Source: Candidatus Dormiibacterota bacterium (GTDB lineage: Bacteria; Chloroflexota; Dormibacteria; Aeolococcales; Aeolococcaceae). Taken from it: DNA of 64,000 nt. The notes beneath the pieces are model-generated. The model ran no database searches and was not told the origin of the DNA. It saw only the letters and a list, made by a program, of their open reading frames with translations. Of the stretch, positions 1 through 18,362 are shown piece by piece. Position numbers and translations under genes: made by a program. The stretch's first letter is position 1. Every line of letters starts with the position of its first letter. The stretch covers positions 2,592,001 to 2,656,000 of the forward strand of contig OY970355.1 in assembly GCA_963718525.1 (NCBI GenBank), read 5' to 3'.

Positions 1-275
1 GAGTTCGTCGCGCACGGCGCGTTCACCATCCCGGCTTGCCCGGGGTAGGCGTTACAGCGACTGCATCTGACAACTTGAAAACCGGCTAGGTCGCGGCCCT
101 GCCTGCGGCTATCGAAGTCTGAGCAGCCCGACCTAGGGTTGAGCGCGTCGCCTGCTACGCGTTGATCGACCTCATCAGCCGCGTAGGCACATTATCGACG
201 CTCCGAGCGCTGTGCTAGCAGGCCCGGAACGCGTATCCACTCAGTTTCGAACACGGAGGCGGATCCGAGAAGCGA

Positions 276-305
276 AAAACAAGAAAGAGATACCCGGCAA
301 CGACC
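276..305 (-). repeat. att-like copy 1 of the 5S rRNA 3' end
   Basis: 286-305 AGAGATACCCGGCAACGACC is identical to 7925-7944. 276-300 matches 2365-2389 at 24/25. Confidence 0.9.
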
Positions 306-374
306 CGGACGCGTACGCCGTGGTAATGCTAAGCGAGGACTACGAGACGCACTGTGAATGAACCCGGCTTGGGC

Positions 375-980
375 TCATCTGCCGATAGCAAGGGCGAGAA
401 GGGTATTGACCGCAGTCTCGAACGGGCGGGTACTCCGTTGCACCTGGGCGAGTAGAAGTCCGCCTTGGAGCGTGGCGAGGAGCGTAGTCGCGAGGTCGTC
501 CGGGTCGATCCCCGACGGGAGCTTCCCGTCGGCATGAAGGGATCTGAGTCCATCGCCGATGGCGGCTGCCCACTGATCGAACCCTGCCGCTATGAGCACT
601 CGGGCCTCGGGGTCACACTCTGCCAGTTGACCACCGAGCGAGCCTAGGGGGCAGCCCCCCTTTGCTTTGGTGCGCTTCGCTTCGGTGATCACCATCTTCC
701 GCCAGGCTTCGACTCCGTTCGCGCTGCGGAGCAACCGCCCCTGGTTATTGACGATGGCGTCGGCCTGGTAATCGATGACCGCCTGCACGAGTTCGTTCTT
801 GTCGGGAAAGTAGTGGTACATCTGAGAGCCGCTGACTTCCGCCGCCACCTTGACGTCTTCCAAGGTGGTGCTCGCCACCCCGCGCTCATGGATCAGGGCG
901 GCGGCCTCCTCCACTATTCGTGCCCGGGTGCGTGCTCCCTTGGGGGTGAGCCTCGGCCGGTCACTCATCTCGTTGACCAT
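375..980 (-). CDS. TetR/AcrR family transcriptional regulator
   Basis: N-terminal HTH (GVASTTLEDVKVAAEVSGSQMYHYFPDK) and GCPLG motif; divergent from the SDR. Confidence 0.92.
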   Translation of the reverse strand: MVNEMSDRPRLTPKGARTRARIVEEAAALIHERGVASTTLEDVKVAAEVSGSQMYHYFPDKNELVQAVIDYQADAIVNNQGRLLRSANGVEAWRKMVITEAKRTKAKGGCPLGSLGGQLAECDPEARVLIAAGFDQWAAAIGDGLRSLHADGKLPSGIDPDDLATTLLATLQGGLLLAQVQRSTRPFETAVNTLLALAIGR

Positions 981-1001
981 GCACCAATGTTAGCAGGATT
1001 T

Positions 1002-1050
1002 TGAGTTTGACAACCCAGTCCGGACCTGTCAGAGTGGGTCGCACAACCCA
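1002..1050 (+). promoter_or_regulatory. SDR promoter with two putative TetR operators
   Basis: TTGACA 1007-1012, 17 nt spacer, CAGAGT 1030-1035. Palindrome TGGGT-N6-ACCCA at 1035-1050 and an imperfect copy TGAGT-N6-ACCCA at 1002-1017. Confidence 0.6.
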
Positions 1051-1076
1051 TTTTTTAGCGACAGGAGGCACATCGC

Positions 1077-1826
1077 ATGACCGACCTCAAGGGCAAGACC
1101 GCTCTGGTTACGGGCTCGACGAGCGGTATCGGCAAGGCGACGGCCATCGCCTTGGCCGCCCGCGGCGCTCACGTACTGGTGGTCGGGCGCAACGAACAAC
1201 GAGCCAAAGACGTGGTGGCCGAGATCGAAGGCAGCGGAGGCAGCGCAACGTTCCGGCTCACCACGTTGAGCGATCTGAAATCAGCCCACGAGCTGGCCGA
1301 ATGGGCCATTGAGGCAGGCGACGGTCATGTCGACATCCTCATCAACAACGCTGGCGTCGCCTTGCTCGGACCAAGCAACGCAGCCACCGAAGCAGACTTC
1401 GACGAGAGCTTTGCAGTCAACGTCAAGGTTCCGTTCTTCCTCGTCGCGTCACTGGCGCCAGCCATGGCCGAACGCGGATGGGGTTCGATCGTCAACGTCT
1501 CCACGATGGTCGCCAGCTTCGGACAGGCAGGCATGGCTCTGTATGGCGCCAGCCGAGCGGCTCTCGAACTGTTGACGAAGGCCTGGGCTGCCGAATACGG
1601 CCCGGGTGGTGTTCGGGTCAACGCCGTTGCCCCCGGCCCGACACGGACCCGCACGATGGAAGCAGTCCCTGAAGAGATGGTGAATCAGCTCGCAGCACAA
1701 GCACCAGCAGGTCGCGTAGCTCAGCCCGAGGAACTTGCTGCGGCGATCGTCTTCCTCGCCAGTGATGATGCCAGCTTCGTCCACGGCGTCACTCTTGCAG
1801 TCGATGGAGGCCGAGTAGCGACGTAA
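1077..1826 (+). CDS. Short-chain dehydrogenase/reductase
   Basis: TGSTSGIG, NNAG and YGASR motifs; GGAGG RBS. Confidence 0.95.
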   Translation: MTDLKGKTALVTGSTSGIGKATAIALAARGAHVLVVGRNEQRAKDVVAEIEGSGGSATFRLTTLSDLKSAHELAEWAIEAGDGHVDILINNAGVALLGPSNAATEADFDESFAVNVKVPFFLVASLAPAMAERGWGSIVNVSTMVASFGQAGMALYGASRAALELLTKAWAAEYGPGGVRVNAVAPGPTRTRTMEAVPEEMVNQLAAQAPAGRVAQPEELAAAIVFLASDDASFVHGVTLAVDGGRVAT

Positions 1827-1896
1827 CGCTTGTCGGCGCGACGTTCAAGTGCGAAGACATAGAACAGATCGCAACCAACAACTGAGGAGTATCCAC

Positions 1897-2217
1897 ATGA
1901 GCGCATACGTAATTGTCGAATTCACGGTCAAGGACCCGGATGTTTATCGTGAGAAATACAGCCGCAACGCTGGACAGACGGCCAAAGAGCACGGAGGCGA
2001 GGCTCTCGCCAACAGTAACTGGGAGATCCTGCATGGCGATGGCTCGCTCACCTCAGGGGCACTCATGCGGTTTCCGGACCATAAGGCGGCCGTCAGTTGG
2101 TACAACTCGCCTGAATATCAGCAGCTGATCGATGTCCGAGGTGTCGCGATGGATGCCCGTTTCAGCTTGCTCGACGGCCTCCCTACGCGCACAGAAGAGG
2201 ACAGCACATCCCAATGA
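1897..2217 (+). CDS. DUF1330 family protein
   Basis: MSAYVIVEF...FPDHKAAVSWYNSPEYQ; GAGGAG RBS before ATG 1897. Confidence 0.85.
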   Translation: MSAYVIVEFTVKDPDVYREKYSRNAGQTAKEHGGEALANSNWEILHGDGSLTSGALMRFPDHKAAVSWYNSPEYQQLIDVRGVAMDARFSLLDGLPTRTEEDSTSQ

Positions 2218-2309
2218 GCGCACTTCCAGGAAAGACGGTACTCATCACCAGCGCCAACGCCGGGATCGGCAACGATGTGGCCCGGCAACTGGCGTTTCGT
2301 ATCACTTAA
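2214..2309 (+). pseudogene. Truncated SDR (N-terminal 31 aa only)
   Basis: ATGA-coupled to the previous gene; translates MSALPGKTVLITSANAGIGNDVARQLAFRIT*, a Rossmann-fold start that ends abruptly. Not in the ORF track. Confidence 0.75.
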
Positions 2310-2364
2310 TGACGCTTTTTGCGCAATCCTGCCCCGACTGTTTTTGCACAAACGCCCAGCTTGG

Positions 2365-2389
2365 AAAACAAGAGAGAGATACCCGGCAA
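2365..2389 (-). repeat. att-like copy 2 of the 5S rRNA 3' end
   Basis: 2373-2389 AGAGAGATACCCGGCAA is identical to 7923-7939; lies about 105 bp upstream of the recombinase. Confidence 0.9.
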
Positions 2390-2495
2390 GCATCCACGCC
2401 TATGCGCTGTGCTTGTGCGACGAGACAATCTCAGACGCGGCGAGCGCGGAGGGCGCAGTTATCTGCTCTGTTTCAATCCGTCACCGAGGACCGTC

Positions 2496-3371
2496 ATGGC
2501 AACGCCAGCAGCCCCGGCCGTTTCCCGGCAATCTGAGCGCCGGCTCGCCGTCTCTCTCGACGTGGTGCGCGAGTACCAGGCCGCGAGCAAGGCTCCGGCC
2601 ACCACGCGGGCTTATGCCTCCGACTGGCGGCGCTTCACCGCCTGGTGCGACGACAGGGGCCTGTCGCCGCTCCCTGCTACTCCGGAGACCGTGAGTCACT
2701 ATCTCGCCGACGCGGCCGAGAACGGCTACCGGGCGGCGACCATCACCCGCTGGGCGGCTGCGATCAGCCAAGCGCACCAGGCGGCGGGACACGCGACCCC
2801 GACCGCTGCGCTCGAGGTGCGGGCTTGCCTACGTGGCATCCGCCGTACCCTCGGCACCGTGGGCCGCCAGGCCGCGCCGATCACCCCGGTCACCCTGCGA
2901 CGGATGCTCCGCCACGTCAGTCGGCGCAATGGTGAGCTGCGGGTCCTCCGCGACCGCGCGCTGCTCCTGGTGGGCTTCGCCTCCGGGCTGCGCCGCTCCG
3001 AGCTGGTCGGGCTGGACGTCGAGGACGTCGAGGAGACGGCCGAGGGTCTGATCCTCAACATTCGCCGCAGCAAGACCGACCAGGAGGGACAGGGACGCCG
3101 TATCGGCGTCTGCCACGGGCGCCACCACGAGACGGACCCGGTTGCCGCCCTGCGGGTCTGGCTCGCCGCCTCGGCAACTGACGCGGGGCCTATCGAGCGG
3201 TACAGCGGTCACTCTCTCCGGGCCGGCATGGCGACATCTGCCGCTGGAGCCGGTGCGAGCGAGGCCGCCATCACGGCGCAGGGCGGATGGCAGTCCGTAC
3301 AGATGGCTCGGCGTTACGTGCGGGACGGGCAGATCTTCCGCGTCGCCTCAGCGCTCGGACTGGGGCTGTAG
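2496..3371 (+). CDS. Cre-like tyrosine recombinase, probable in-frame internal deletion
   Basis: TTRAYASDWRRF N-domain, GLRRSEL, SKTDQEG, HSLRAG and GW...RRYVR motifs. The segment between GPI and YSGHSLR is unusually short. Confidence 0.88.
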   Translation: MATPAAPAVSRQSERRLAVSLDVVREYQAASKAPATTRAYASDWRRFTAWCDDRGLSPLPATPETVSHYLADAAENGYRAATITRWAAAISQAHQAAGHATPTAALEVRACLRGIRRTLGTVGRQAAPITPVTLRRMLRHVSRRNGELRVLRDRALLLVGFASGLRRSELVGLDVEDVEETAEGLILNIRRSKTDQEGQGRRIGVCHGRHHETDPVAALRVWLAASATDAGPIERYSGHSLRAGMATSAAGAGASEAAITAQGGWQSVQMARRYVRDGQIFRVASALGLGL

Positions 3372-3440
3372 GCTTTCGGAGGGCCCATGAGGCGGGTGCT
3401 TCTACACCGCAGTCCCACGTCGTGCGAAGCCAACATCATG

Positions 3441-3812
3441 CTAGGGCAGCGGAGGTGGGGCGGGGATCTGCGCTGTGGCCTGAGCAAAGTCGTACCCGCA
3501 GGAACGGCAAACGGTGAGCCCCTTCTTCACGTCATTGCCACAACGCGGGCACTGACGGTGCCGCGGCCTGCTCATCAGCCATATCAAGCCCAGAACCACG
3601 AAACCGATGAACCAGATGAGAACGATCAGCGTGACGCCAATCCCGGCGCCAACCGCCGTCCCGGCTTGACAACCAGACAGTGCCCCGTCAGTCAGCCCCG
3701 CGCAGTTGTCGCTGGTGCTGGCGATTCCGGCGATCAGCCAGATGACGATAAGGACGTTGAATATGGCGAGCGCCCAGGTAGCCTTGCGCCAGTGGGGAAC
3801 CAGTCGACCCAT
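3441..3812 (-). CDS. Small membrane protein with C-terminal zinc ribbon
   Basis: Two hydrophobic helices, then CPRC...CRSC; GGAGG RBS. Confidence 0.75.
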   Translation of the reverse strand: MGRLVPHWRKATWALAIFNVLIVIWLIAGIASTSDNCAGLTDGALSGCQAGTAVGAGIGVTLIVLIWFIGFVVLGLIWLMSRPRHRQCPRCGNDVKKGLTVCRSCGYDFAQATAQIPAPPPLP

Positions 3813-3928
3813 TTTGACTTCACCTCCCTGGGATCAACGTCCCATCGGGACCGCACGATACGCACTGCCACGTCGAGCGTCAACGCGGTTGGCACTCGCC
3901 TGGCTCGTGGCAGACCACCCGTCACAAG

Positions 3929-3959
3929 AGAGGCCCTTGACGCGCTACCAAGGGCCTCT
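3929..3959. terminator. Hairpin, possible terminator
   Basis: 11-bp stem AGAGGCCCTTG/CAAGGGCCTCT. Confidence 0.45.
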
Positions 3960-4114
3960 TAGGAAGGGATGAATTGCGGGATTCAGTGCATGGGCCATAG
4001 CCCTGCGGGCGACTGGCGGGTCGTTCAACGCCAGGGCTAACAGGGATGTTCTTGCCTTTCGCCCGGCCCCGAGCTACCAACATAGGTCGTATTGACGAGC
4101 CCTAGCGCGGGCGA

Positions 4115-4660
4115 TCAGCCCGAGAGACCCAGCTCGCCGCTGAGGGATGCATCGGCCGCCGTCAAGGCGCTCTGCGCGGGAGTCACCGTGTTGAAAATTG
4201 CGTTGTAGTTGCTGATGTTGTCTGTGTTCGCCGCAAGCGTGCCCATCACGTTTTCAAGCGCCGCGTCCGCGCTGAGAACGGCCTGAACATCTGCAGCGTC
4301 AGCTGGCGGGAACGTTATTGCTTGAACAGCGGTATCAAATGTTTGGCGCGCGCTGATCTGGGCATTGATGGCCGCAGCGGCTCCAGTCGGATCCGTAGAG
4401 GCCTTGTTCTGCTCCGCGATCTGTGCGTTGACAGCCGTGACCATTGCGTTGAAGGCAGTTGAATACGCGCTCGCAGCCACTAGCTCAGCGGCGGCCGCTG
4501 ACGCCGAGCTGTTCGCGGCAGCTCCGCCCGCGGAGCTTGCCGACGAGATGGCCGAGGGCGGCGATCCGCCGCACGCGACGATAACCACGGTTGCGGCCGA
4601 CGCGACGAACCCCACGATGACCCAGCGTTTCACAGTCGTCGCCATCGTCGTTACCTCCAA
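4115..4660 (-). CDS. Putative Ala-rich lipoprotein
   Basis: Signal peptide with lipobox IVA-C; helical mature region. Confidence 0.65.
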   Translation of the reverse strand: MEVTTMATTVKRWVIVGFVASAATVVIVACGGSPPSAISSASSAGGAAANSSASAAAAELVAASAYSTAFNAMVTAVNAQIAEQNKASTDPTGAAAAINAQISARQTFDTAVQAITFPPADAADVQAVLSADAALENVMGTLAANTDNISNYNAIFNTVTPAQSALTAADASLSGELGLSG

Positions 4661-5033
4661 TCCCCTATCGACCGAATTCCCGTCGAGACGGCGACGACGA
4701 CCGTCGTTCTTGAGGATCGCCCCGCCGATCGAGAAGCGCCTGGATTGCCTTCATGTGTCTGTTCGGCATCCTACGAACCGGCCAGGTCTAATCATTGCCC
4801 GCGATCTTGATGTGACACACCCTGGGTCACTCGCCTGCGCCCTCCGTCCCCTAGGGAGCGATCGCCGCCGCGAGAAACCACCCGATGCCGACCGCTGTCA
4901 TCCCGACACCGCTGCGCTGCTTCATGGCTTGGCTACCTTCCTTGAAGTCTCAGCCAACCGAACGAGCCCCGGTGCCGGCGCCGAACTGACCCTGGTTGGA
5001 GAGCGCTCCACGTCGCTTTTCGGATCCCGGCAA

Positions 5034-5843
5034 TTAGCTCTCGGCGAACCAATAGTCTAGAAAATCCGTGTTCGATGGGCCTCCCTCACCGACTGGACCC
5101 GGAGCAGCAAGATTGTACGTCCCCGACTGATTGATCATGTTGATGCCGGTGTACGAGAAGAAACCGATCCCCAACTTCTTGCCGCCCGCCGTCGCGTACG
5201 CGGAGGAGAATCCAATCTGCTCCTGGGCCGTCGTGTTAGACCACTCAGCCAGATTGCCGATCGAGCCGCCATACGTGGGCGCTTCACCGATCCACTCGGC
5301 AGAACTTCGTGTGCAGGTCAGCCCTGAGGCACAAGTCTGAGTAGTAGAAAACGAATGCCTGTGCGCCGTAGTCGTGTCGTTGACGACAATTTTGAACTTT
5401 CCACTTGCGTAGGTGACGCTTGCCGTGATGGAGTCGCCGGGGAACACGCCATAGGCGATCTGAATGTCGTTGGTCGGATACATCTCCCACCAAGCGTAGT
5501 AAGAGGGACTCGTGCCCGAGCAGTACGCATAAGTACCGCCCTGCTCGACTGTATTATCGCTGAAGCCATCCAGGCCAACCCAGAATGCATGGGACTCGTT
5601 GACGGTCCCGAGGCACGTCGCCTTGGGCACCTTCCACTTCGCCGTGACGAACGTGAATCGCTTTGCCGAGGCGGAGGCGGCGGCAAAACCCGACCAGTTG
5701 TAGCTGGTCACCCCTCCCGGCCCACCCTCGCTTCCGGGGATGTTCGCACCACTCCGGGCAGTTGGAACTGATGGTGCGGCGGCGAGTGTAAGGCTGGCGA
5801 GAGCCACGGCCAAGCCGAGCGTTCCGGGGATGATCCGTTTCAT
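5034..5843 (-). CDS. Secreted glutamic peptidase, family G1 (eqolisin)
   Basis: NWSGF, WVGLDG, EQGGT, AWWEMYP and SAEWIGE motifs; signal peptide MKRIIPG; AGGAGG RBS. Confidence 0.9.
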   Translation of the reverse strand: MKRIIPGTLGLAVALASLTLAAAPSVPTARSGANIPGSEGGPGGVTSYNWSGFAAASASAKRFTFVTAKWKVPKATCLGTVNESHAFWVGLDGFSDNTVEQGGTYAYCSGTSPSYYAWWEMYPTNDIQIAYGVFPGDSITASVTYASGKFKIVVNDTTTAHRHSFSTTQTCASGLTCTRSSAEWIGEAPTYGGSIGNLAEWSNTTAQEQIGFSSAYATAGGKKLGIGFFSYTGINMINQSGTYNLAAPGPVGEGGPSNTDFLDYWFAES

Positions 5844-6119
5844 GTGCCTCCTAAGCTGGTCGTACTCGCACCGACTTGCTCTGAAGAGACTGGGTGACCG
5901 TTGCGAGCAACCAGAATCCCTCCCGACTGCGCCGATTATGCGGGATCGCGTTAGCGGTTGGCGCATCCCGACCGCATGAGCGCCACCACGAGCAGACCTT
6001 TCTTGATCATTACCCCAACCCAGGTAGCTCGGTGCGCCTCAGTTAGCGATGCCGTTCAACGGGTCTTTGGTGATGGACAGTTCCCCGGGCGGCTGCCGCG
6101 GATTGGGCGGCGTGACTCT

Positions 6120-6617
6120 TCACAACGGCCAACGGCGGGCAGTAGTAGCCCTGAATTTCGTCGTCCCAGCGGACACCTCCGCAAATGCGCGATCGTCGGC
6201 CTCCTCGGCCCTCGCTCTGAGGACGAAGTAGGCTCGCCAACGCATATGGGGCGGTTTCCCCGGGAAGGGCACGAGGAGACTGGCGGATCCTCCCATCCGC
6301 AGCCGAATGGCCTGAGCACGTGTGATGGCTCGATCCCCAGCCGTAGCCCGCTGAGATGCATAGACGAGACGGTGGCAGTTGCGGCAGCGGAGAGTTCCCG
6401 CGAGCTGGTACAGACGGATCGCACGGCAGCCGCACCCCGGGCAGAGCCACCAGGCACGCTCGCCCCCGAAGGGGCACGGCGTGTACGAGATCTCCACCGC
6501 GCCCTCCCGTTCGGCGTAGCGGCGATGGTGCCACAGGCGAATATCCAGGACGGGGCAACTTTCGACAGTTAATGGCGTCCCGTACCTGGGCCACTGACCC
6601 GATCCTAAGCCGCCCCT
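6120..6617 (-). pseudogene. Element-associated Zn-finger hypothetical protein, probably degenerate
   Basis: GGERAWWLCPGCG...CRNC..YASQ...KPPHM motifs. The likely MGGLGSG start reads AGG at 6615-6617. Confidence 0.55.
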
Positions 6618-6946
6618 TTCACCGAAATCTTCTGAGTTTCGACGCGAGCCCGGATTTGCTCGAGGAGCCGCAGACGAGACATCGATGGTGCTCGGGGCCA
6701 TCGCCAGGGACCACGCTATTGCTCCCTACCTGAGCGATAAGTGAGCGCTATCGGGCGGGATGAGCCACGCCAACGGGAGCCTTGGTTGGGCGACCAAACT
6801 ATGTCGCGACACTACAACAGATGTGTAGCACCATTGCCAGAAGCTCCGCGGCGCGGCTCATGCGGTTCTGCCGTCCATCGGGTCCGCCGCCAGGGGTCAG
6901 CGTCCATAGGGACTGGCGCCCATCGACGGTTCCAGCAAGGGTCGGA

Positions 6947-7213
6947 CCAGACAACCAGACACCCTTAAGTGACCACTTGTCTGTCTGGTTGGTCAACTGC
7001 GCCCCAGAGGGGGCTACTGCCCCCCGCTCTCTGAGGCTCCGCGCCAGGTCGTGTCGTGTCTGTCTGCCAGACATGTCTGGTGCCGTTTTCGTATTCACGC
7101 GACACCCCCGAGCCCTATTTGTCTGGTACGTGTCTGGTTAGCGTCGTCGAAGGCCGCGAGCGCCCATTTGGTGGGCTCGGTGCCGGGTACGGGGACGAAC
7201 AGCCGGCCAGACA
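6947..7213. repeat. Cluster of CCAGACA/TGTCTGG repeats, putative origin iterons
   Basis: Full or near-full copies near 6947, 6955, 6978-6988, 7057-7066, 7120, 7131 and 7207; perfect palindrome CCAGACATGTCTGG at 7067-7080. Confidence 0.65.
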
Positions 7214-7904
7214 TCCTTTTGAGGGTTGTCCGGACGGTTTCGGTGTTCGCGTCGAGGTGATCGGCGATGTCTGCGACGGTGCGGGGCGACGTCTTCAGGA
7301 GTGCGCGAATGCGGGCTTTGAGCGGCATGGCGCCGGCCAGGTCGGGAATGCTGGCGATGTCGGCTCGCGTGATCGTCGTCTTGGGCTCGAACTCGAAGTG
7401 CAACGCGAACGGCTGGGCCTTGGTGCCGTCGTTGCTCTTCTTGCTGGTGAGCGCAAGGTCGAGCCGCGGTGATCCCGGCTCCTGGGACGCCTTGACGAAC
7501 CAGGTCAACCGGGCCGAGTTGTGCCAGAAGGTCGAGCCGAATGGTCGGTCCTCGTCGCCACCTCTGTTGATGTGGGCGAGCAGACAACTCCCCACCTCGA
7601 GGCGGGACAGAGCTTGGAAGAAGTCGAGGCAGACGCCGGCGCCTTCGGGAGGACCGGCACAGGCGAGCGCGACGGAGTCGAGGAAGATATACCGGATCTC
7701 GTGCTCGTGGATGATGCGTTGCAACCGTTCCACCTGGGCGCTCAGCGGTCCCTCGCTCGCGCAGGGGACGTACAGCACCGAGGGCAGCGGAGCACCGTCC
7801 CCACACAGGGCGCCCATGCGCCGGCGGTGGGGGGCGGCTCGCCACTCGAAGTCCAGATATGCGGTCTTCAACCGTTGCGAGAGGGGCAGACCCAAAGGCC
7901 TCAC
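7095..7904 (-). pseudogene. 5'-truncated RepA/AAA_25-like helicase with C-terminal HTH
   Basis: YLDFE, IFLDS (Walker B), LLAH and FGSTFW..SAR motifs; Walker A absent; ORF begins right at the element end. Confidence 0.65.
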
Positions 7905-7912
7905 GTTGAGGC
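7898..7912 (-). terminator. Hairpin just downstream of 5S, possible rrn terminator
   Basis: GCCTCA-ACG-TGAGGC followed by CTTT on the minus strand. Confidence 0.4.
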
Positions 7913-7930
7913 GAGATACAAAAGAGAGAT

Positions 7931-8047
7931 ACCCGGCAACGACCTACTCTCCCACCCCGTTGCCAGGGCAGTACCATCGGCGCTGGTGGGCTTAACTGCT
8001 GTGTTCGGGATGGGAACAGGTGTTTCCCCACCGCTATGATCACCGGA
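7931..8047 (-). rRNA. rrf: 5S rRNA
   Basis: CCCATCCCGAACAC and GAGAGTAGGTCGTTGCC motifs; flanked by a precursor stem. Confidence 0.97.
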
Positions 8048-8542
8048 TATCTCTCTCATGACGAGTGAGAACGCGAGTCTGGTCCACGGAAGCGGCGTCG
8101 CGCCGTCCGTCGGAGAATCCTAGTGCGCTACTTCGAGCGCTCTTGCCAGGCGTTGCACTTTCCTGCGGCGCCACCCTTGGCGCCATCCCACTAGTCGCTG
8201 AAAAGTGGGATAGGAGGTCAAGCCCTCGACCGATTAGTACCGCTCAGCTCAAAGAGTCACCTCTCTTACACCCGCGGCCTATCAACCAGATGGTCTCTCT
8301 GGGGTCTTACCCGGTTATCCGGTGGGAGATCTTATCTTGGAGTGGGCTTCGCACTTAGATGCTTTCAGCGCTTATCCCATCCGGACATGGCTACCCAGCG
8401 ATGCTCTTGGCAGAACAACTGGTGCACTAGCGGTCCGTCCAACCCGGTCCTCTCGTACTAAGGTCAGCTCTCCTCAAATCTCCTGCGCCCACAGCGGATA
8501 CGATCCGAACTGTCTCACGACGTTCTAAACCCAGCTCGCGTA

Positions 8543-8579
<37 letters not shown>

Positions 8580-8583
8580 ACTC

Positions 8584-8625
<42 letters not shown>

Positions 8626-8655
8626 TGCCGTCGATGTGAACTCTTGGGCAAGATC

Positions 8656-8692
<37 letters not shown>

Positions 8693-8849
8693 GACGGCCT
8701 TTCCATTCAGAGCCGTCGGATCACTATGCCCGACTTTCGTCCCTGCTCGGCTTGTCGGCCTCACAGTCAAGCTCCCTTACGCCATTACACGCCAAGGCCT
8801 GATTTCCATCCAGGCTGAGGGAACCTTTGGGCGCCTCCGTTACCGTTTG

Positions 8850-8882
<33 letters not shown>

Positions 8883-9161
8883 CCACGGTCCCGACACCGG
8901 ATAACGGCGCCGGTTAGAAATAAAATCCAGCAAGGCTGGTATTCCAAGGTTGACTCCACCGAACCTAGCGGCCCGACTTCACAGTCTCCCAGCTATCCTC
9001 TACATGCTGGACCCCATTTCAGTGGCAAGTTATAGTAAAGCTCCACGGGGTCTTTCCGTCCTGCTGCGGGTAACCTGTATCTTCACAGGTACTTCAGTTT
9101 CGCCGAGTACGTGGCCGAGACAGCGCCCATCTCGTTACGCCATTCGTGCGGGTCGGAACTT

Positions 9162-9919
<758 letters not shown>

Positions 9920-11355
9920 ATTTCAGAGCTTGCACCCCTCCACTTAACCTTCCGGCACCGGGCAGGCGTCAGCCCCTATACGTCAGCTTACGCTTTAGCA
10001 GAGACCTGTGTTTTTAGTAAACAGTCGGATGGGCCTTTTCTCTGCGGCCCTCGTCAGCTCACCGAGTAAATCGGATCACCGCCAAGGGCTCCCCTTCTCC
10101 CGAAGTTACGGGGACATTTTGCCGAGTTCCTTAGCCACGTTTCCCTCGATCGCCTTGGAATCCTCTTCCCACCTACCTGTGTCGGTCTGCGGTACGGGCG
10201 CCGTGGTTCTCGCTAGAGGCTTTTCTTGGAGGCATGGAACCGGCCCCATCGACACGAAGTGTCTTGGGATCCTTCTCGGAGTTAATGTCAAGCGGATTTG
10301 CCTACTTGACCTCCTACAAGGCTCCGTCGGGGACAACCGTCGCCCCGTCAGGCCTATCCTTCCCCGTTCCCCCATTGCTGATAACGAACCAGCGGCGGTG
10401 TTGGAATGTTGACCAACTGTCCATCGCCTACGCCTTTCGGCCTCGGCTTAGGTCCCGACTGACCCTGGGTCGATTAACGTAGCCCAGGAAACCTTAGGTT
10501 TACGGCGAACACGTTTCTCACGCGTTTCTCGCTACTTGTGCCGGCATTCTCACTTCTGTCCGCTCCACCCGTCCTTACGGTCAGGCTTCGCAGCAAACAG
10601 AACGCTCCTCTACCACGACCTTCCTGTGAAGGAAGGCCATCCACGGCTTCGGTTGCAAGCTTGAGCCCCGATCATTGTCGGCGCCACGACATTCGACCAG
10701 TGAGCTGTTACGCACTCTTTAAATGGTGGCTGCCTCTAAGCCCACATCCTGGTTGTCTGGACACCGTGACATCCTTTTCCACTTAGCTTGCGATTTGGGA
10801 CCTTAGCCGGTGGTCTGGGCTGTTTCCCTTTCGACGATGAAGCTTAGCCCCCACCGTCTCACTGCCGCCGGAAAGTTTGTTGCCATTCGGAGTTTGGTTG
10901 GGTTTGGTAACGAGGTGATCGCCCCTAGCCCATTCAGTGCTCTACCGGCCACAAACCCATCGACGACGCTGCACCTAAATGCATTTCGAGGAGAACCAGC
11001 TATATCCGAGTTCGATTGGCATTTCACCGCTATCCACAGTTCATCCGCCGCATTTTCAACTGGGGTCGGTTCGGGCTTCCACGCGGTCTTACCCGCGCTT
11101 CACCCTGACCATGGATAGGTCACTCGGTTTCGGGTCTACTCCATGCGACTACCACCACCATTACAGTGGTCACGCCCTATTCAAACTCGCTTTCGCTACG
11201 GCTCCGGGTGTCAACCCCTTAACCTCGCCACATGGAAGTAACTCGCCGGCTCATTCTACAAAAGGCACGCAATCAGGCATTCCCACTAGGGGCATAGCCC
11301 TCTCACGGCTTGTAAGCACACGGTTTCAGGTACTTTTAACTCCCCGTCTGGGGTG

Positions 11356-11401
<46 letters not shown>

Positions 11402-12134
11402 AGTATTCAGGCTTGGACGATGGTCCGCCCAGATTCCCACAGAATTCCACGTGTTCCGTGGTACTTGGGAGCTCTCAAAGGAGGTCGTGTGCCTTTCGCG
11501 TACGGGGCTGTCACCCTCTGCGGCCGGCTTTTCCAATGCCGTTCGGCTAGACAACGACTTTGTAACTCCTTGTCCCCTCGGCAGAAGGAACGCTGAGGTC
11601 CCGCGACCCCGAGACGGAAACGCCTGCCGGCTATCACGCCGTCTCGGTTTAGCCTCACCCCTTTTCGCTCGCCACTACTCAGGGGATGACATCTTTTCCT
11701 GCGGATACTTAGATGTTTCAGTTCTCCGCGTGCCCTCTACCCGGTCTATATATTCAACCGGGAGTACCTGGACATTCCTCCAGGTGGGTTGCCCCATTCG
11801 GAAATCCCCGGATCGAGTGCTTGCTAGCAGCTACCCGAGGCTTATCGCAACAACGCTACGTCCTTCATCGGCTCTTGGTGCCAAGGCATCCACCGTGTGC
11901 CCTTGGTAGCTTGACCTTTCCTATCGTCACTGTTCAATGACTGCAGGAGGCCTGGTGACGACGCTGCGTCACCACGACACGTGTTTCGCCTGGCTTGTTG
12001 TTTGTTATTGAGGATTCTCACTTGAACGCTGGACGACGGAAACCGTCCAGTGTTCTCGCAGACTCGCTATTCTCGTGTCAACGTGCAAACGACCGACCTT
12101 GAGGCCGGCTGTCGAGCGGAGGGGTCGTTGCCCG

Positions 12135-12608: not shown

Positions 12609-14118
<1,510 letters not shown>

Positions 14119-18092: not shown

Positions 18093-18362
18093 AGTCGCGC
18101 ACCCCATGTCGTTGGCACGCCACCAGCGCTCACCCGTACGACCGGCTCAGACCAGGTGTCCCCACGGCACCCCCGGGGAACCGCTTACCGCTGCTTCCTT
18201 CCGGACCTGACGGGGTTCACGGGCCCGAGCTGCGCGGGACCCAGTCGTCAACGCCGGCGCGTCCGGAGCAGACCCAATGACGCGCCCCCTCGATGGGGAA
18301 TTCAGCCCCGCTATAGCGGATTGCGGGTACAGGGCACCGCTAACGCCCCGCCTAGCGCGACC
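18093..18362 (-). ncRNA. ffs: Large bacterial SRP RNA (Alu + S domains)
   Basis: TCAGGTCCGGAAGGAAGCAGC helix 8; Alu-like GCGGTGCCCTGTACCCGCAATCCGC; terminal stem; TACAAT 6 nt upstream. Confidence 0.92.

Follow-up and report, generated by a model that had tools for sequence, protein, structure and literature searches.

Tandem cassettes at the 3' end of a lone 5S rRNA gene in a Dormibacteria genome: a probable integration site in one bacterial family

We examined a stretch of 64,000 nucleotides, referred to here as the window, which covers positions 2,592,001 to 2,656,000 of contig OY970355.1 (GenBank assembly GCA_963718525.1, Candidatus Dormiibacterota bacterium). The genome is a single contig of 3,336,189 bp with 66% G+C, and its ribosomal RNA (rRNA) operon lies in the window on the minus strand: 16S at 12609-14118, tRNA-Ile, tRNA-Ala, 23S at 8214-11916 and 5S at 7931-8047, all located with Rfam. 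The 5S gene is single-copy (one match in a whole-genome search), and an array of gene cassettes extends away from its 3' end, the units being separated by short repeats of that end. In this bacterial family the 5S end and its trailer very probably form a genuine recurrent integration site, where the cassettes that pile up mostly have no integrase but retain a conserved site each.

The repeated core, AGAGATACCCGGCAA, consists of 9 nt of the 5S 3' end followed by trailer, and the genome holds five copies of it. Within the window the repeats comprise the final 9-14 nt of 5S and 6-8 nt of trailer. An earlier reading of the DNA from its letters alone (the sequence-only reading) had pointed to three of these copies, and re-reading the letters gave the same picture: 2373-2389 is identical to 7923-7939 over 17 bp, 286-305 is identical to 7925-7944 over 20 bp, the copies at 286 and 2375 differ at 1 of about 25 positions, and all three lie on the plus strand. 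The 15-mer common to them is found 3 times in the window, where 0.06 would be expected, and none of 100 shuffles reached 3. Across the genome, at no more than one mismatch, it occurs 5 times, always on the plus strand and within 11,022 bp directly downstream of 5S. We call these copies R1 (L002 14903), R2 (L002 17011, with 1 mismatch), R3 (window 286), R4 (2375) and R5 (7925), the last being the 5S end itself; successive spacings are 2108, 1275, 2089 and 5550 bp. At no more than two mismatches there are 13 matches, and the remaining 8, each with two mismatches, are scattered and have unrelated flanks. Because all five close copies are confined to the array downstream of 5S, the motif is not a repeat dispersed through the genome, an alternative that the sequence-only reading had raised. 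That reading had overlooked R2 and R1, which lie 989 and 3,097 bp left of the window start, and the array therefore extends beyond the left window edge.

Outward from 5S the array begins with R5 and element A (5.5 kb); R4 and cassette B (2.1 kb), R3 and cassette C (1.3 kb), and R2 and cassette D (2.1 kb) follow in turn, and R1 closes it ahead of a native terminator-like flank. At R1-R4 the core is followed by an arm of about 100 bp, and we refer to the core with this conserved arm as the module. The features found in the window are as follows.

1-48, plus strand: 3' end of the small lipoprotein gene, last gene of cassette C (open reading frame at L163 5614-6048)
272-345, unstranded: R3, with core 286-300 and a shortened, diverged arm; junction of cassettes C and B (repeat family, 72% to the reference copy)
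375-980, minus strand: TetR-family regulator, cassette B (Pfam TetR_N, TetR_C_13)
1077-1826, plus strand: short-chain dehydrogenase, cassette B (Pfam adh_short_C2, E = 1e-56)
1897-2217, plus strand: DUF1330 protein, cassette B (Pfam PF07045, E = 1e-19)
2363-2480, unstranded: R4, full module with core 2375-2389, then the arm of about 100 bp; junction of cassette B and element A (blocks GCGCYGTGCT, ATCTCG-N7-CGAGCG and GTTATCTGCT; alignments)
2496-3371, plus strand: tyrosine recombinase ('type 1'), element A (Pfam PF00589, two stretches)
3441-3812, minus strand: small zinc-ribbon membrane protein, element A (Pfam Zn_ribbon_3)
4115-4660, minus strand: putative secreted or lipoprotein, element A (open reading frame; no Pfam match)
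5034-5843, minus strand: secreted peptidase A4-like protein, element A (Pfam Peptidase_A4, E = 9e-27)
6120-6701, minus strand: 193-residue cysteine-rich protein, element A (open reading frame; no Pfam match)
6945-7140, unstranded: cluster of ACCAGACA/TGTCTGGT repeats, iteron-like, element A (repeat search, families D1, D3, I1-I9)
7095-7904, minus strand: AAA_25 (RepA/KaiC-like) ATPase gene, element A (Pfam match to profile positions 70-175 only)
7918-7939, unstranded: R5, trailer and last 9 nt of 5S; junction of element A and 5S, attL-like (sequence, repeat search, junction alignment)
7931-8047, minus strand: 5S rRNA gene, full length (Rfam RF00001, 107.3 bits, model positions 1-120)

Accessory cargo between the repeat copies, as had been proposed, is borne out by the open reading frames and Pfam matches of cassette B and element A. 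Cassette B also contains a dehydrogenase fragment, read from the sequence by eye. Cassette C, which starts at R2, 989 bp left of the window, encodes a 132-residue protein and the small lipoprotein, and cassette D, between R1 and R2, encodes a 504-residue lipoprotein. The lipoprotein genes of D and C are 85% identical over the upstream region and signal-peptide start (L163 3272-3319 and 5599-5646), and distant homologues (28-32%) of the 504-residue lipoprotein recur in the G024, G003 and G125 arrays (G numbers denote genomes). Left of R1 lies a terminator-like hairpin, followed by chromosomal DUF6629, HTH-MEDS and LuxR-PAS genes. In element A the ACCAGACA/TGTCTGGT repeats are dense, both direct and inverted; they sit close to the AAA_25 gene on its downstream side and are possible iterons of a replication origin. 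The repeat-containing stretch 6950-7893 is 74% conserved in L110, a contig of a metagenome-assembled genome (MAG) titled Acidiferrales.

The modules share more than the core. At R1-R4 a trailer-like stretch, GGAAAACAAGAG, lies left of the core, and the arm to its right carries the blocks GCATCC, GCGCYGTGCT, ATCTCG-N7-CGAGCG and GAGTTATCTGCTSTGTTTC. In the alignment the R3 arm lacks about 70 bp, and the R4 arm stops 24 nt ahead of the recombinase ATG, which is at 2496, 107 bp past the core; a recombinase close to this copy had been correctly placed by the sequence-only reading. Modules are on average only about 65% identical, and what is conserved is conserved in blocks of sequence, a pattern that points to protein-binding DNA. 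Around the core, GAGATAC-CCGGCAA-GCATCC looks like two imperfect inverted half-sites about a 7-bp spacer, with arms of 6-7 bp as against the 11-6-11 binding arms of Xer sites, and the last arm block may correspond to an inverted copy of trailer plus core.

We also tried other identities for the module. A permissive Rfam search of window 1-7900 gave only chance-level matches and none for the module even at E <= 10. RNAalifold on 20-21 aligned modules found no conserved structure, with -2.8 and -0.3 kcal/mol on the two strands and no compensatory pairs; the CTCG-N7-CGAG palindrome shows one compensatory change and three A.C mismatches among 20 copies. Folded as attC-like DNA hairpins, individual modules did not outdo shuffled sequences (z between +0.1 and -1.7). 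Nor are they degenerate 5S copies, as no similarity past the core was found by eye or by Rfam. No dif-like site was found at up to 4 mismatches to a proteobacterial dif core, from which the host's own dif site may differ.

If the 5S end is an integration site, relatives should differ in what they carry there, and they do. The 14-mer core recurs (at no more than one mismatch) in 40 relatives, clustered in several. Our genus sample comprised 18 loci from 17 genomes, with the 5S end present in 17 of the loci. Ten of these 17 have the 5S end alone with no extra core, and the other seven (G017, G024, G023, G019, contig C13 of G012, G003 and G011) have one or two further copies, each with its arm, oriented like the 5S copy and on the trailer side. 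In G014, G006 and G020 a hairpin and T-rich run come directly after the trailer. Wider searches added modules in G125 (4), G118, G009, G109 (3, genus g21), G043 (genus g5), G084 (genus g11) and the metagenome contig L082, for a total of 25 modules in 14 genomes of one family plus one metagenome contig. Modules lie 3' of 5S and in the same orientation in all 12 genomes with 5S on the same contig; the stretches examined of G009, G043 and L082 hold no 5S. A loose module pattern run over the order (161 genomes) gave mostly chance matches outside genera g1, g21 and perhaps g11.

The core itself varies with the host. In genus g1 it reads ...ATACCCGG...; G109, in its 5S end as in each of its 3 modules, has ...ATATCCGG..., a T replacing one C; and G084 has ...ATACTCGG... 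in its 5S and module, a variant shared by L082. In these comparisons the core matches each host's own 5S variant.

In G019 and in contig C13 of G012, cassette B, 95.5% identical, abuts 5S directly. In the junction alignment these two relatives read B-end/core/5S, while the genome studied here (G000) reads B-end/core/arm of A at R4 and A/core/5S at R5. In the relatives element A (5.5 kb) is thus missing precisely at the core, with about 22 bp shared at the junctions, and the three joints look like the attB, attR and attL pattern expected of an insertion. The unit that would be newest sits beside 5S, as expected if the rebuilt 5S end is reused. We found no perfect empty site for the whole array among relatives; species also differ in the DNA that separates the array from the conserved genes for a sigma factor and a lipoprotein. 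The G012 MAG has two 5S contexts, one on C11 (L038) that is syntenic with the window and has no cassette, and the other on C13 (L037) with cassette B, reflecting either two rRNA operons or two strains binned together.

Integrase-bearing elements are found at the same site elsewhere in the family. In G125 a tyrosine integrase gene lies within about 100 bp of the 5S trailer, split by a frameshift (Pfam positions 3-66 and 70-170), and opens a phage-like element of about 9 kb with DUF3631, large terminase (TerL), HK97-type capsid and prohead protease genes, after which comes the next core. With the N-terminal part of this integrase as query against 117 genomes of the family, the closest homologue (52% identical) was in G084, again directly after 5S. 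The G084 integrase is intact at 305 residues (Pfam positions 7-169 of 172), and its 8.16-kb unit, which also holds DUF3631, resolvase and trypsin-like peptidase genes, has an exact 17-bp repeat of the 5S end at its two boundaries, the far copy having a module-like arm. Among the 11 loci of closest matches in this search, 5S was present in 1, a tRNA gene adjoining the integrase in 7 (one of them in the unpublished genome G044) and neither in 3. In a tree the G084 and G125 integrases pair with support of 88/83 inside a 100/100 clade that holds all of the tRNA-linked ones; the order within the clade is not resolved. Because it has more distant homologues beside tRNA genes, the G084/G125 lineage may have switched target.

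The window integrase belongs to another lineage: a tblastn search with it gave no match in G125 at E <= 1e-3. The 5S end has probably been used by at least two integrase lineages. Contig L082 carries a relative of the window recombinase (66% identical, and 79% identical to an intact metagenome relative, P0002) about 450 bp beyond a module, with MmeI-type and Mrr restriction genes next to it. For more distant homologues (31-59% identical, 12 metagenome loci) no convincing upstream module was found, only matches with 1-2 mismatches to single short blocks; another full-length relative, P0003, gave one distant match as a query against genome contigs. Displaced 5S 3' fragments had been proposed as something to seek in relatives, and they were found, with integrases at G084, G125 and L082. 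An interval at the 5S gene of G109 (L107 10113-17141) carries DUF4062-cyclase-AAA-TPR, TCAD9 with phosphatase domain, and ferritin-like genes, and looks like a conflict or defence system.

We consider it likely, with a probability of roughly 80%, that the 5S 3' end and its trailer of about 18 nt are the attB for integration by tyrosine recombinases in this family. We take as established the repeats, their restriction to the locus, the variable occupancy among relatives (including the site that lacks A) and the integrase-bearing elements in G084 and G125. On this account the attP of an incoming circle would combine a trailer-like arm with the shared core (about ACAAAAGAGAGATACCCGGCAA) and the conserved arm of about 100 bp. 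Site-specific recombination in the core would separate the 5S gene from its native terminator by the inserted element and would rebuild the 5S end, so that the next element could enter at the same place, and repeated rounds would have built the array. Strand exchange may occur in or near CCGGCAA, flanked by the imperfect inverted arms GAGATAC and GCATCC; the arm blocks may bind recombinase or accessory proteins; and the integrase-less cassettes may be moved in trans by the integrases of visiting elements. The sequence-only reading had proposed two successive integrations into rrf; serial integration stands, while the number is too low, with at least four units here. Its suggestion of integrase-associated islands is supported, with the corrections that the local integrase is damaged and that most units have none of their own, and the family of 5S-targeting elements that it envisaged is now represented by the 25 modules and by the elements in G084 and G125.

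Several observations weigh against this account. The window recombinase retains R166, K193, H239, R242 and Y274, which fall in invariant alignment columns and include the H-x-x-R motif, and yet has a 37-residue in-frame deletion between K and H-x-x-R relative to six aligned homologues, which splits its Pfam match. P0002, which is 95% identical to it over aligned positions, has the 37 residues, and the alignment with P0003 likewise shows the window protein lacking them. At the other end of element A, the AAA_25 protein has 269 residues as against 395-430 in homologues and lacks approximately the first 160, including the Walker A motif. Because its homology begins about 20-40 bp from the core, the 5S-side end of A is not an intact element end; in L110, which has a full-length AAA_25 relative, several more genes precede that gene. 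Homologues of AAA_25 in other phyla (53 loci) have only that gene in common, and none of these loci encodes a type-1 integrase. The deletion and the truncation together lead us to read element A as a remnant, and since both of its end genes are damaged, the array in this genome, although real, is probably frozen and inactive.

The scarcity of enzymes counts in the same direction. With 7-11 integrase queries, tblastn found no tyrosine recombinase in the array stretches of the 17 genus relatives (18 loci), and among six further loci it found one, in G125 only; with integrases in so few arrays, most cassettes seem to be without a cognate enzyme in cis. Two unrelated integrase lineages share the arm blocks, which would be odd if the blocks were integrase arm sites, and the arm adjoining cassette B differs between this genome and G019/G012. 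In contigs from four public runs we found no trustworthy joint for an excision product, a circle or an empty site within one population, a result that is uninformative on activity; the joints listed in run contigs are single contigs with sides of 20-30 letters and were not used.

Neither is the mobility of cassette B the support that it might seem. Over 19 kb of the window, syntenic core DNA shows 75-79% identity in G019, G012, G010, G020 and G118, while cassette B is 94-95.5% identical across species that differ to this extent. The 132-residue gene of cassette C is 90% identical in G020, where it stands beside 5S with no module. The rRNA operon is itself 98-99% identical between species, and homologous exchange anchored there could also move cassettes. 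Moreover, the cargo of B is widespread: the best 80 of at least 480 relatives of its dehydrogenase all have 87-98% protein identity, and these 80 records come from Dormibacteraeota, many Acidimicrobiaceae, other Actinomycetota and one proteobacterium. In seven of eight flank tests at four dehydrogenase loci, no other locus of the 79 had 1 kb or more in common with the flank, and in the eighth a right flank was common to 2; among the dehydrogenase loci listed, the core with a 60-bp arm is common only to copies at 5S. Since this cargo is promiscuous across phyla and contexts, the high identity of B is weak evidence for movement of a 5S cassette as such. As an observation in its own right, the TetR/dehydrogenase/DUF1330 unit (window 352-2300) has 89-96% nucleotide identity in Dormibacteraeota, Acidimicrobiaceae, other Actinomycetota, Thermoleophilia and one proteobacterium, in contexts that almost always differ, with a sharp left end and three recurrent right ends (at about 1827, 2185 and 2300); in most actinobacterial copies conservation reaches about 70 nt further left than in the window copy.

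That the locus could instead be a hypervariable region kept by homologous recombination was considered with this evidence in mind. Under such a scheme the rRNA operon and the modules of about 125 bp would be portable homology, cassettes would be swapped between species after DNA uptake, and site-specific recombination would have no role today. The contrast between rRNA flank and other DNA (98-99% versus 75-79%) and the lack of integrases in most arrays fit, and a similar proposal exists for hypervariable region 2 (HVR2) of SAR11 (PMC2217521). We nevertheless regard it as unlikely. It leaves unexplained how a 5S end came to be joined to an unrelated arm, why the core tracks each host's 5S variant, why integrase genes stand directly at 5S in G084 and G125 and why the core is exactly duplicated around element A, and modules with an average identity of about 65% would offer poor homology. 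Still less probable, in our view, is that the repeats are functional copies of the 5S trailer, that is, processing or terminator signals duplicated with local gene gain and acting in cis as RNA rather than as recombination sites. The 5S leader and trailer are complementary, and at R1 and R3 the core and trailer, in the 5S direction, score as a hairpin of terminator type followed by a T-rich tail, but terminator-like matches number 10 as against 8.6 in shuffles, equal to expectation, and the lack of a conserved RNA structure or Rfam family, folding no better than in shuffles and conservation by sequence blocks all speak against it.

The least probable explanation is an assembly artefact, in which an assembler joined reads of the rRNA region, or of other strains, into a tandem array that does not exist. 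Loci of rRNA are classic sites of misassembly, and cassette B could have misled an assembler: soil-run depth is 90-780 over window 1-2500 and about 15 elsewhere, with B 5-150 times deeper than its surroundings, a depth that we attribute to the wide distribution of its cargo. Against this, the genome is one contig with one 5S gene, and the same architecture is present in 13 other genomes. Among the four public runs, X2-X4 come from one study and may include the source sample; their independent contigs and unitigs cross R1, R2, R3 and R4 with 0-2 differences. At the 5S end the unitig stops, as it should where strains share a sequence. Misassembly at the rRNA repeat, which the sequence-only reading had asked to be checked, is therefore unlikely, given the single 5S gene and the bridged R1-R4. 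Integration at the 5S end remains the explanation that we prefer.

Two further observations concern neighbouring RNA genes. The 23S gene at 8214-11916 spans 3,703 nt as compared with a model of 2,925 positions, and the relatives G003, G011, G020 and G005 have about 305 nt extra in 23S at window 8639/8640; the 23S therefore carries variable insertions. The signal recognition particle RNA gene lies at window 18095-18360 on the minus strand (Rfam).

That elements integrate at tRNA and tmRNA gene ends is textbook knowledge, and to our knowledge rRNA genes are not on the usual list of integration targets. In a lineage with one rRNA operon, the 5S end would be a hotspot for at least two integrase lineages. 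Island finders limited to tRNA/tmRNA or coding genes would miss such elements, above all in MAGs, where rRNA loci often remain unassembled. The intact G084 integrase, with its short defined attB, could become a genetic tool for an uncultured phylum, and integrase-less cassettes that keep a conserved site pose a testable question on mobilisation in trans.

Full-text literature searches turned up no bacterium in which the 5S rRNA gene is described as an attachment site; subscription journals lie outside their coverage, and a prior report is possible. The TIGER/Islander resource names tRNA/tmRNA, coding and intergenic target classes, and a search of its text for the term rRNA gave nothing (PMC12424338). 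Two described systems are attached to rRNA operons, as this one is. The HVR2 of SAR11 lies between 23S and 5S, hence upstream of 5S rather than downstream as here, with homologous recombination within the adjoining rRNA genes as the proposed mechanism (PMC2217521). In Azospirillum B510 an island occupies trnfM distal to an rrn operon, and so uses the tRNA that follows 5S and not 5S itself (PMC2818188).

The islands and prophages at tRNA/tmRNA 3' ends (Islander/TIGER class) are closely similar in plan. They too have a tyrosine integrase and an attP that shares a short identity block with the end of a structural-RNA gene, the gene end is rebuilt, a displaced fragment lies at the far element end and occupancy can be tandem; moreover, the G084/G125 integrase lineage has its more distant homologues beside tRNA genes. 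The features by which structural-RNA islands are recognised are present here, namely an intact target gene with a bounding direct repeat, an integrase adjoining the att site and an unoccupied site in relatives. The differences are that the target is the 5S gene and that the identity block is mostly trailer, with only 9 nt (once 14 nt) inside 5S.

Serial use of one gene end also has parallels. Dehalococcoides reportedly carries tandem islands targeted to ssrA, and streptococci are said to have accretion arrays of integrative and conjugative elements (ICEs) with integrase-less cis-mobilizable elements (CIMEs). These systems resemble the present one in serial integration at the end of one single-copy small-RNA or other gene and in att-separated units, some of which have no recombination genes and would depend on mobilisation in trans. 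At the 5S end, however, most units have no integrase; these units are short (0.5-2 kb), each with its conserved arm of about 100 bp. The target gene is another, and no transfer genes were seen.

Finally, we compare the locus with integron cassette arrays. It is conceivable, though we hold this only tentatively and think it rather doubtful, that the locus is a new kind of cassette-capture platform, in which integrase-less cassettes with attP-like modules of about 125 bp are stacked at 5S by integrases supplied in trans by plasmid- or phage-like visitors. Block-wise conservation of the module across at least four genera suggests that such a platform would still be in use. No intI/attI/Pc platform adjoins the array, whose flanks are the rRNA operon and the DUF6629, HTH-MEDS and LuxR-PAS genes, and the only recombinase is inside the array. 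The likeness to integrons lies in short units that hold one to three genes and a recombination site of their own (about 60-140 bp, with imperfect inverted ends), and in an enzyme that acts on the cassettes in trans. A capture platform at 5S would parallel the integron in function, but it would be anchored on an rRNA gene and have no resident integrase. Unlike attC, the sites described here are conserved in sequence and not in hairpin structure, and unlike integron arrays, the array is anchored on the end of an RNA gene and carries cargo in mixed orientation.

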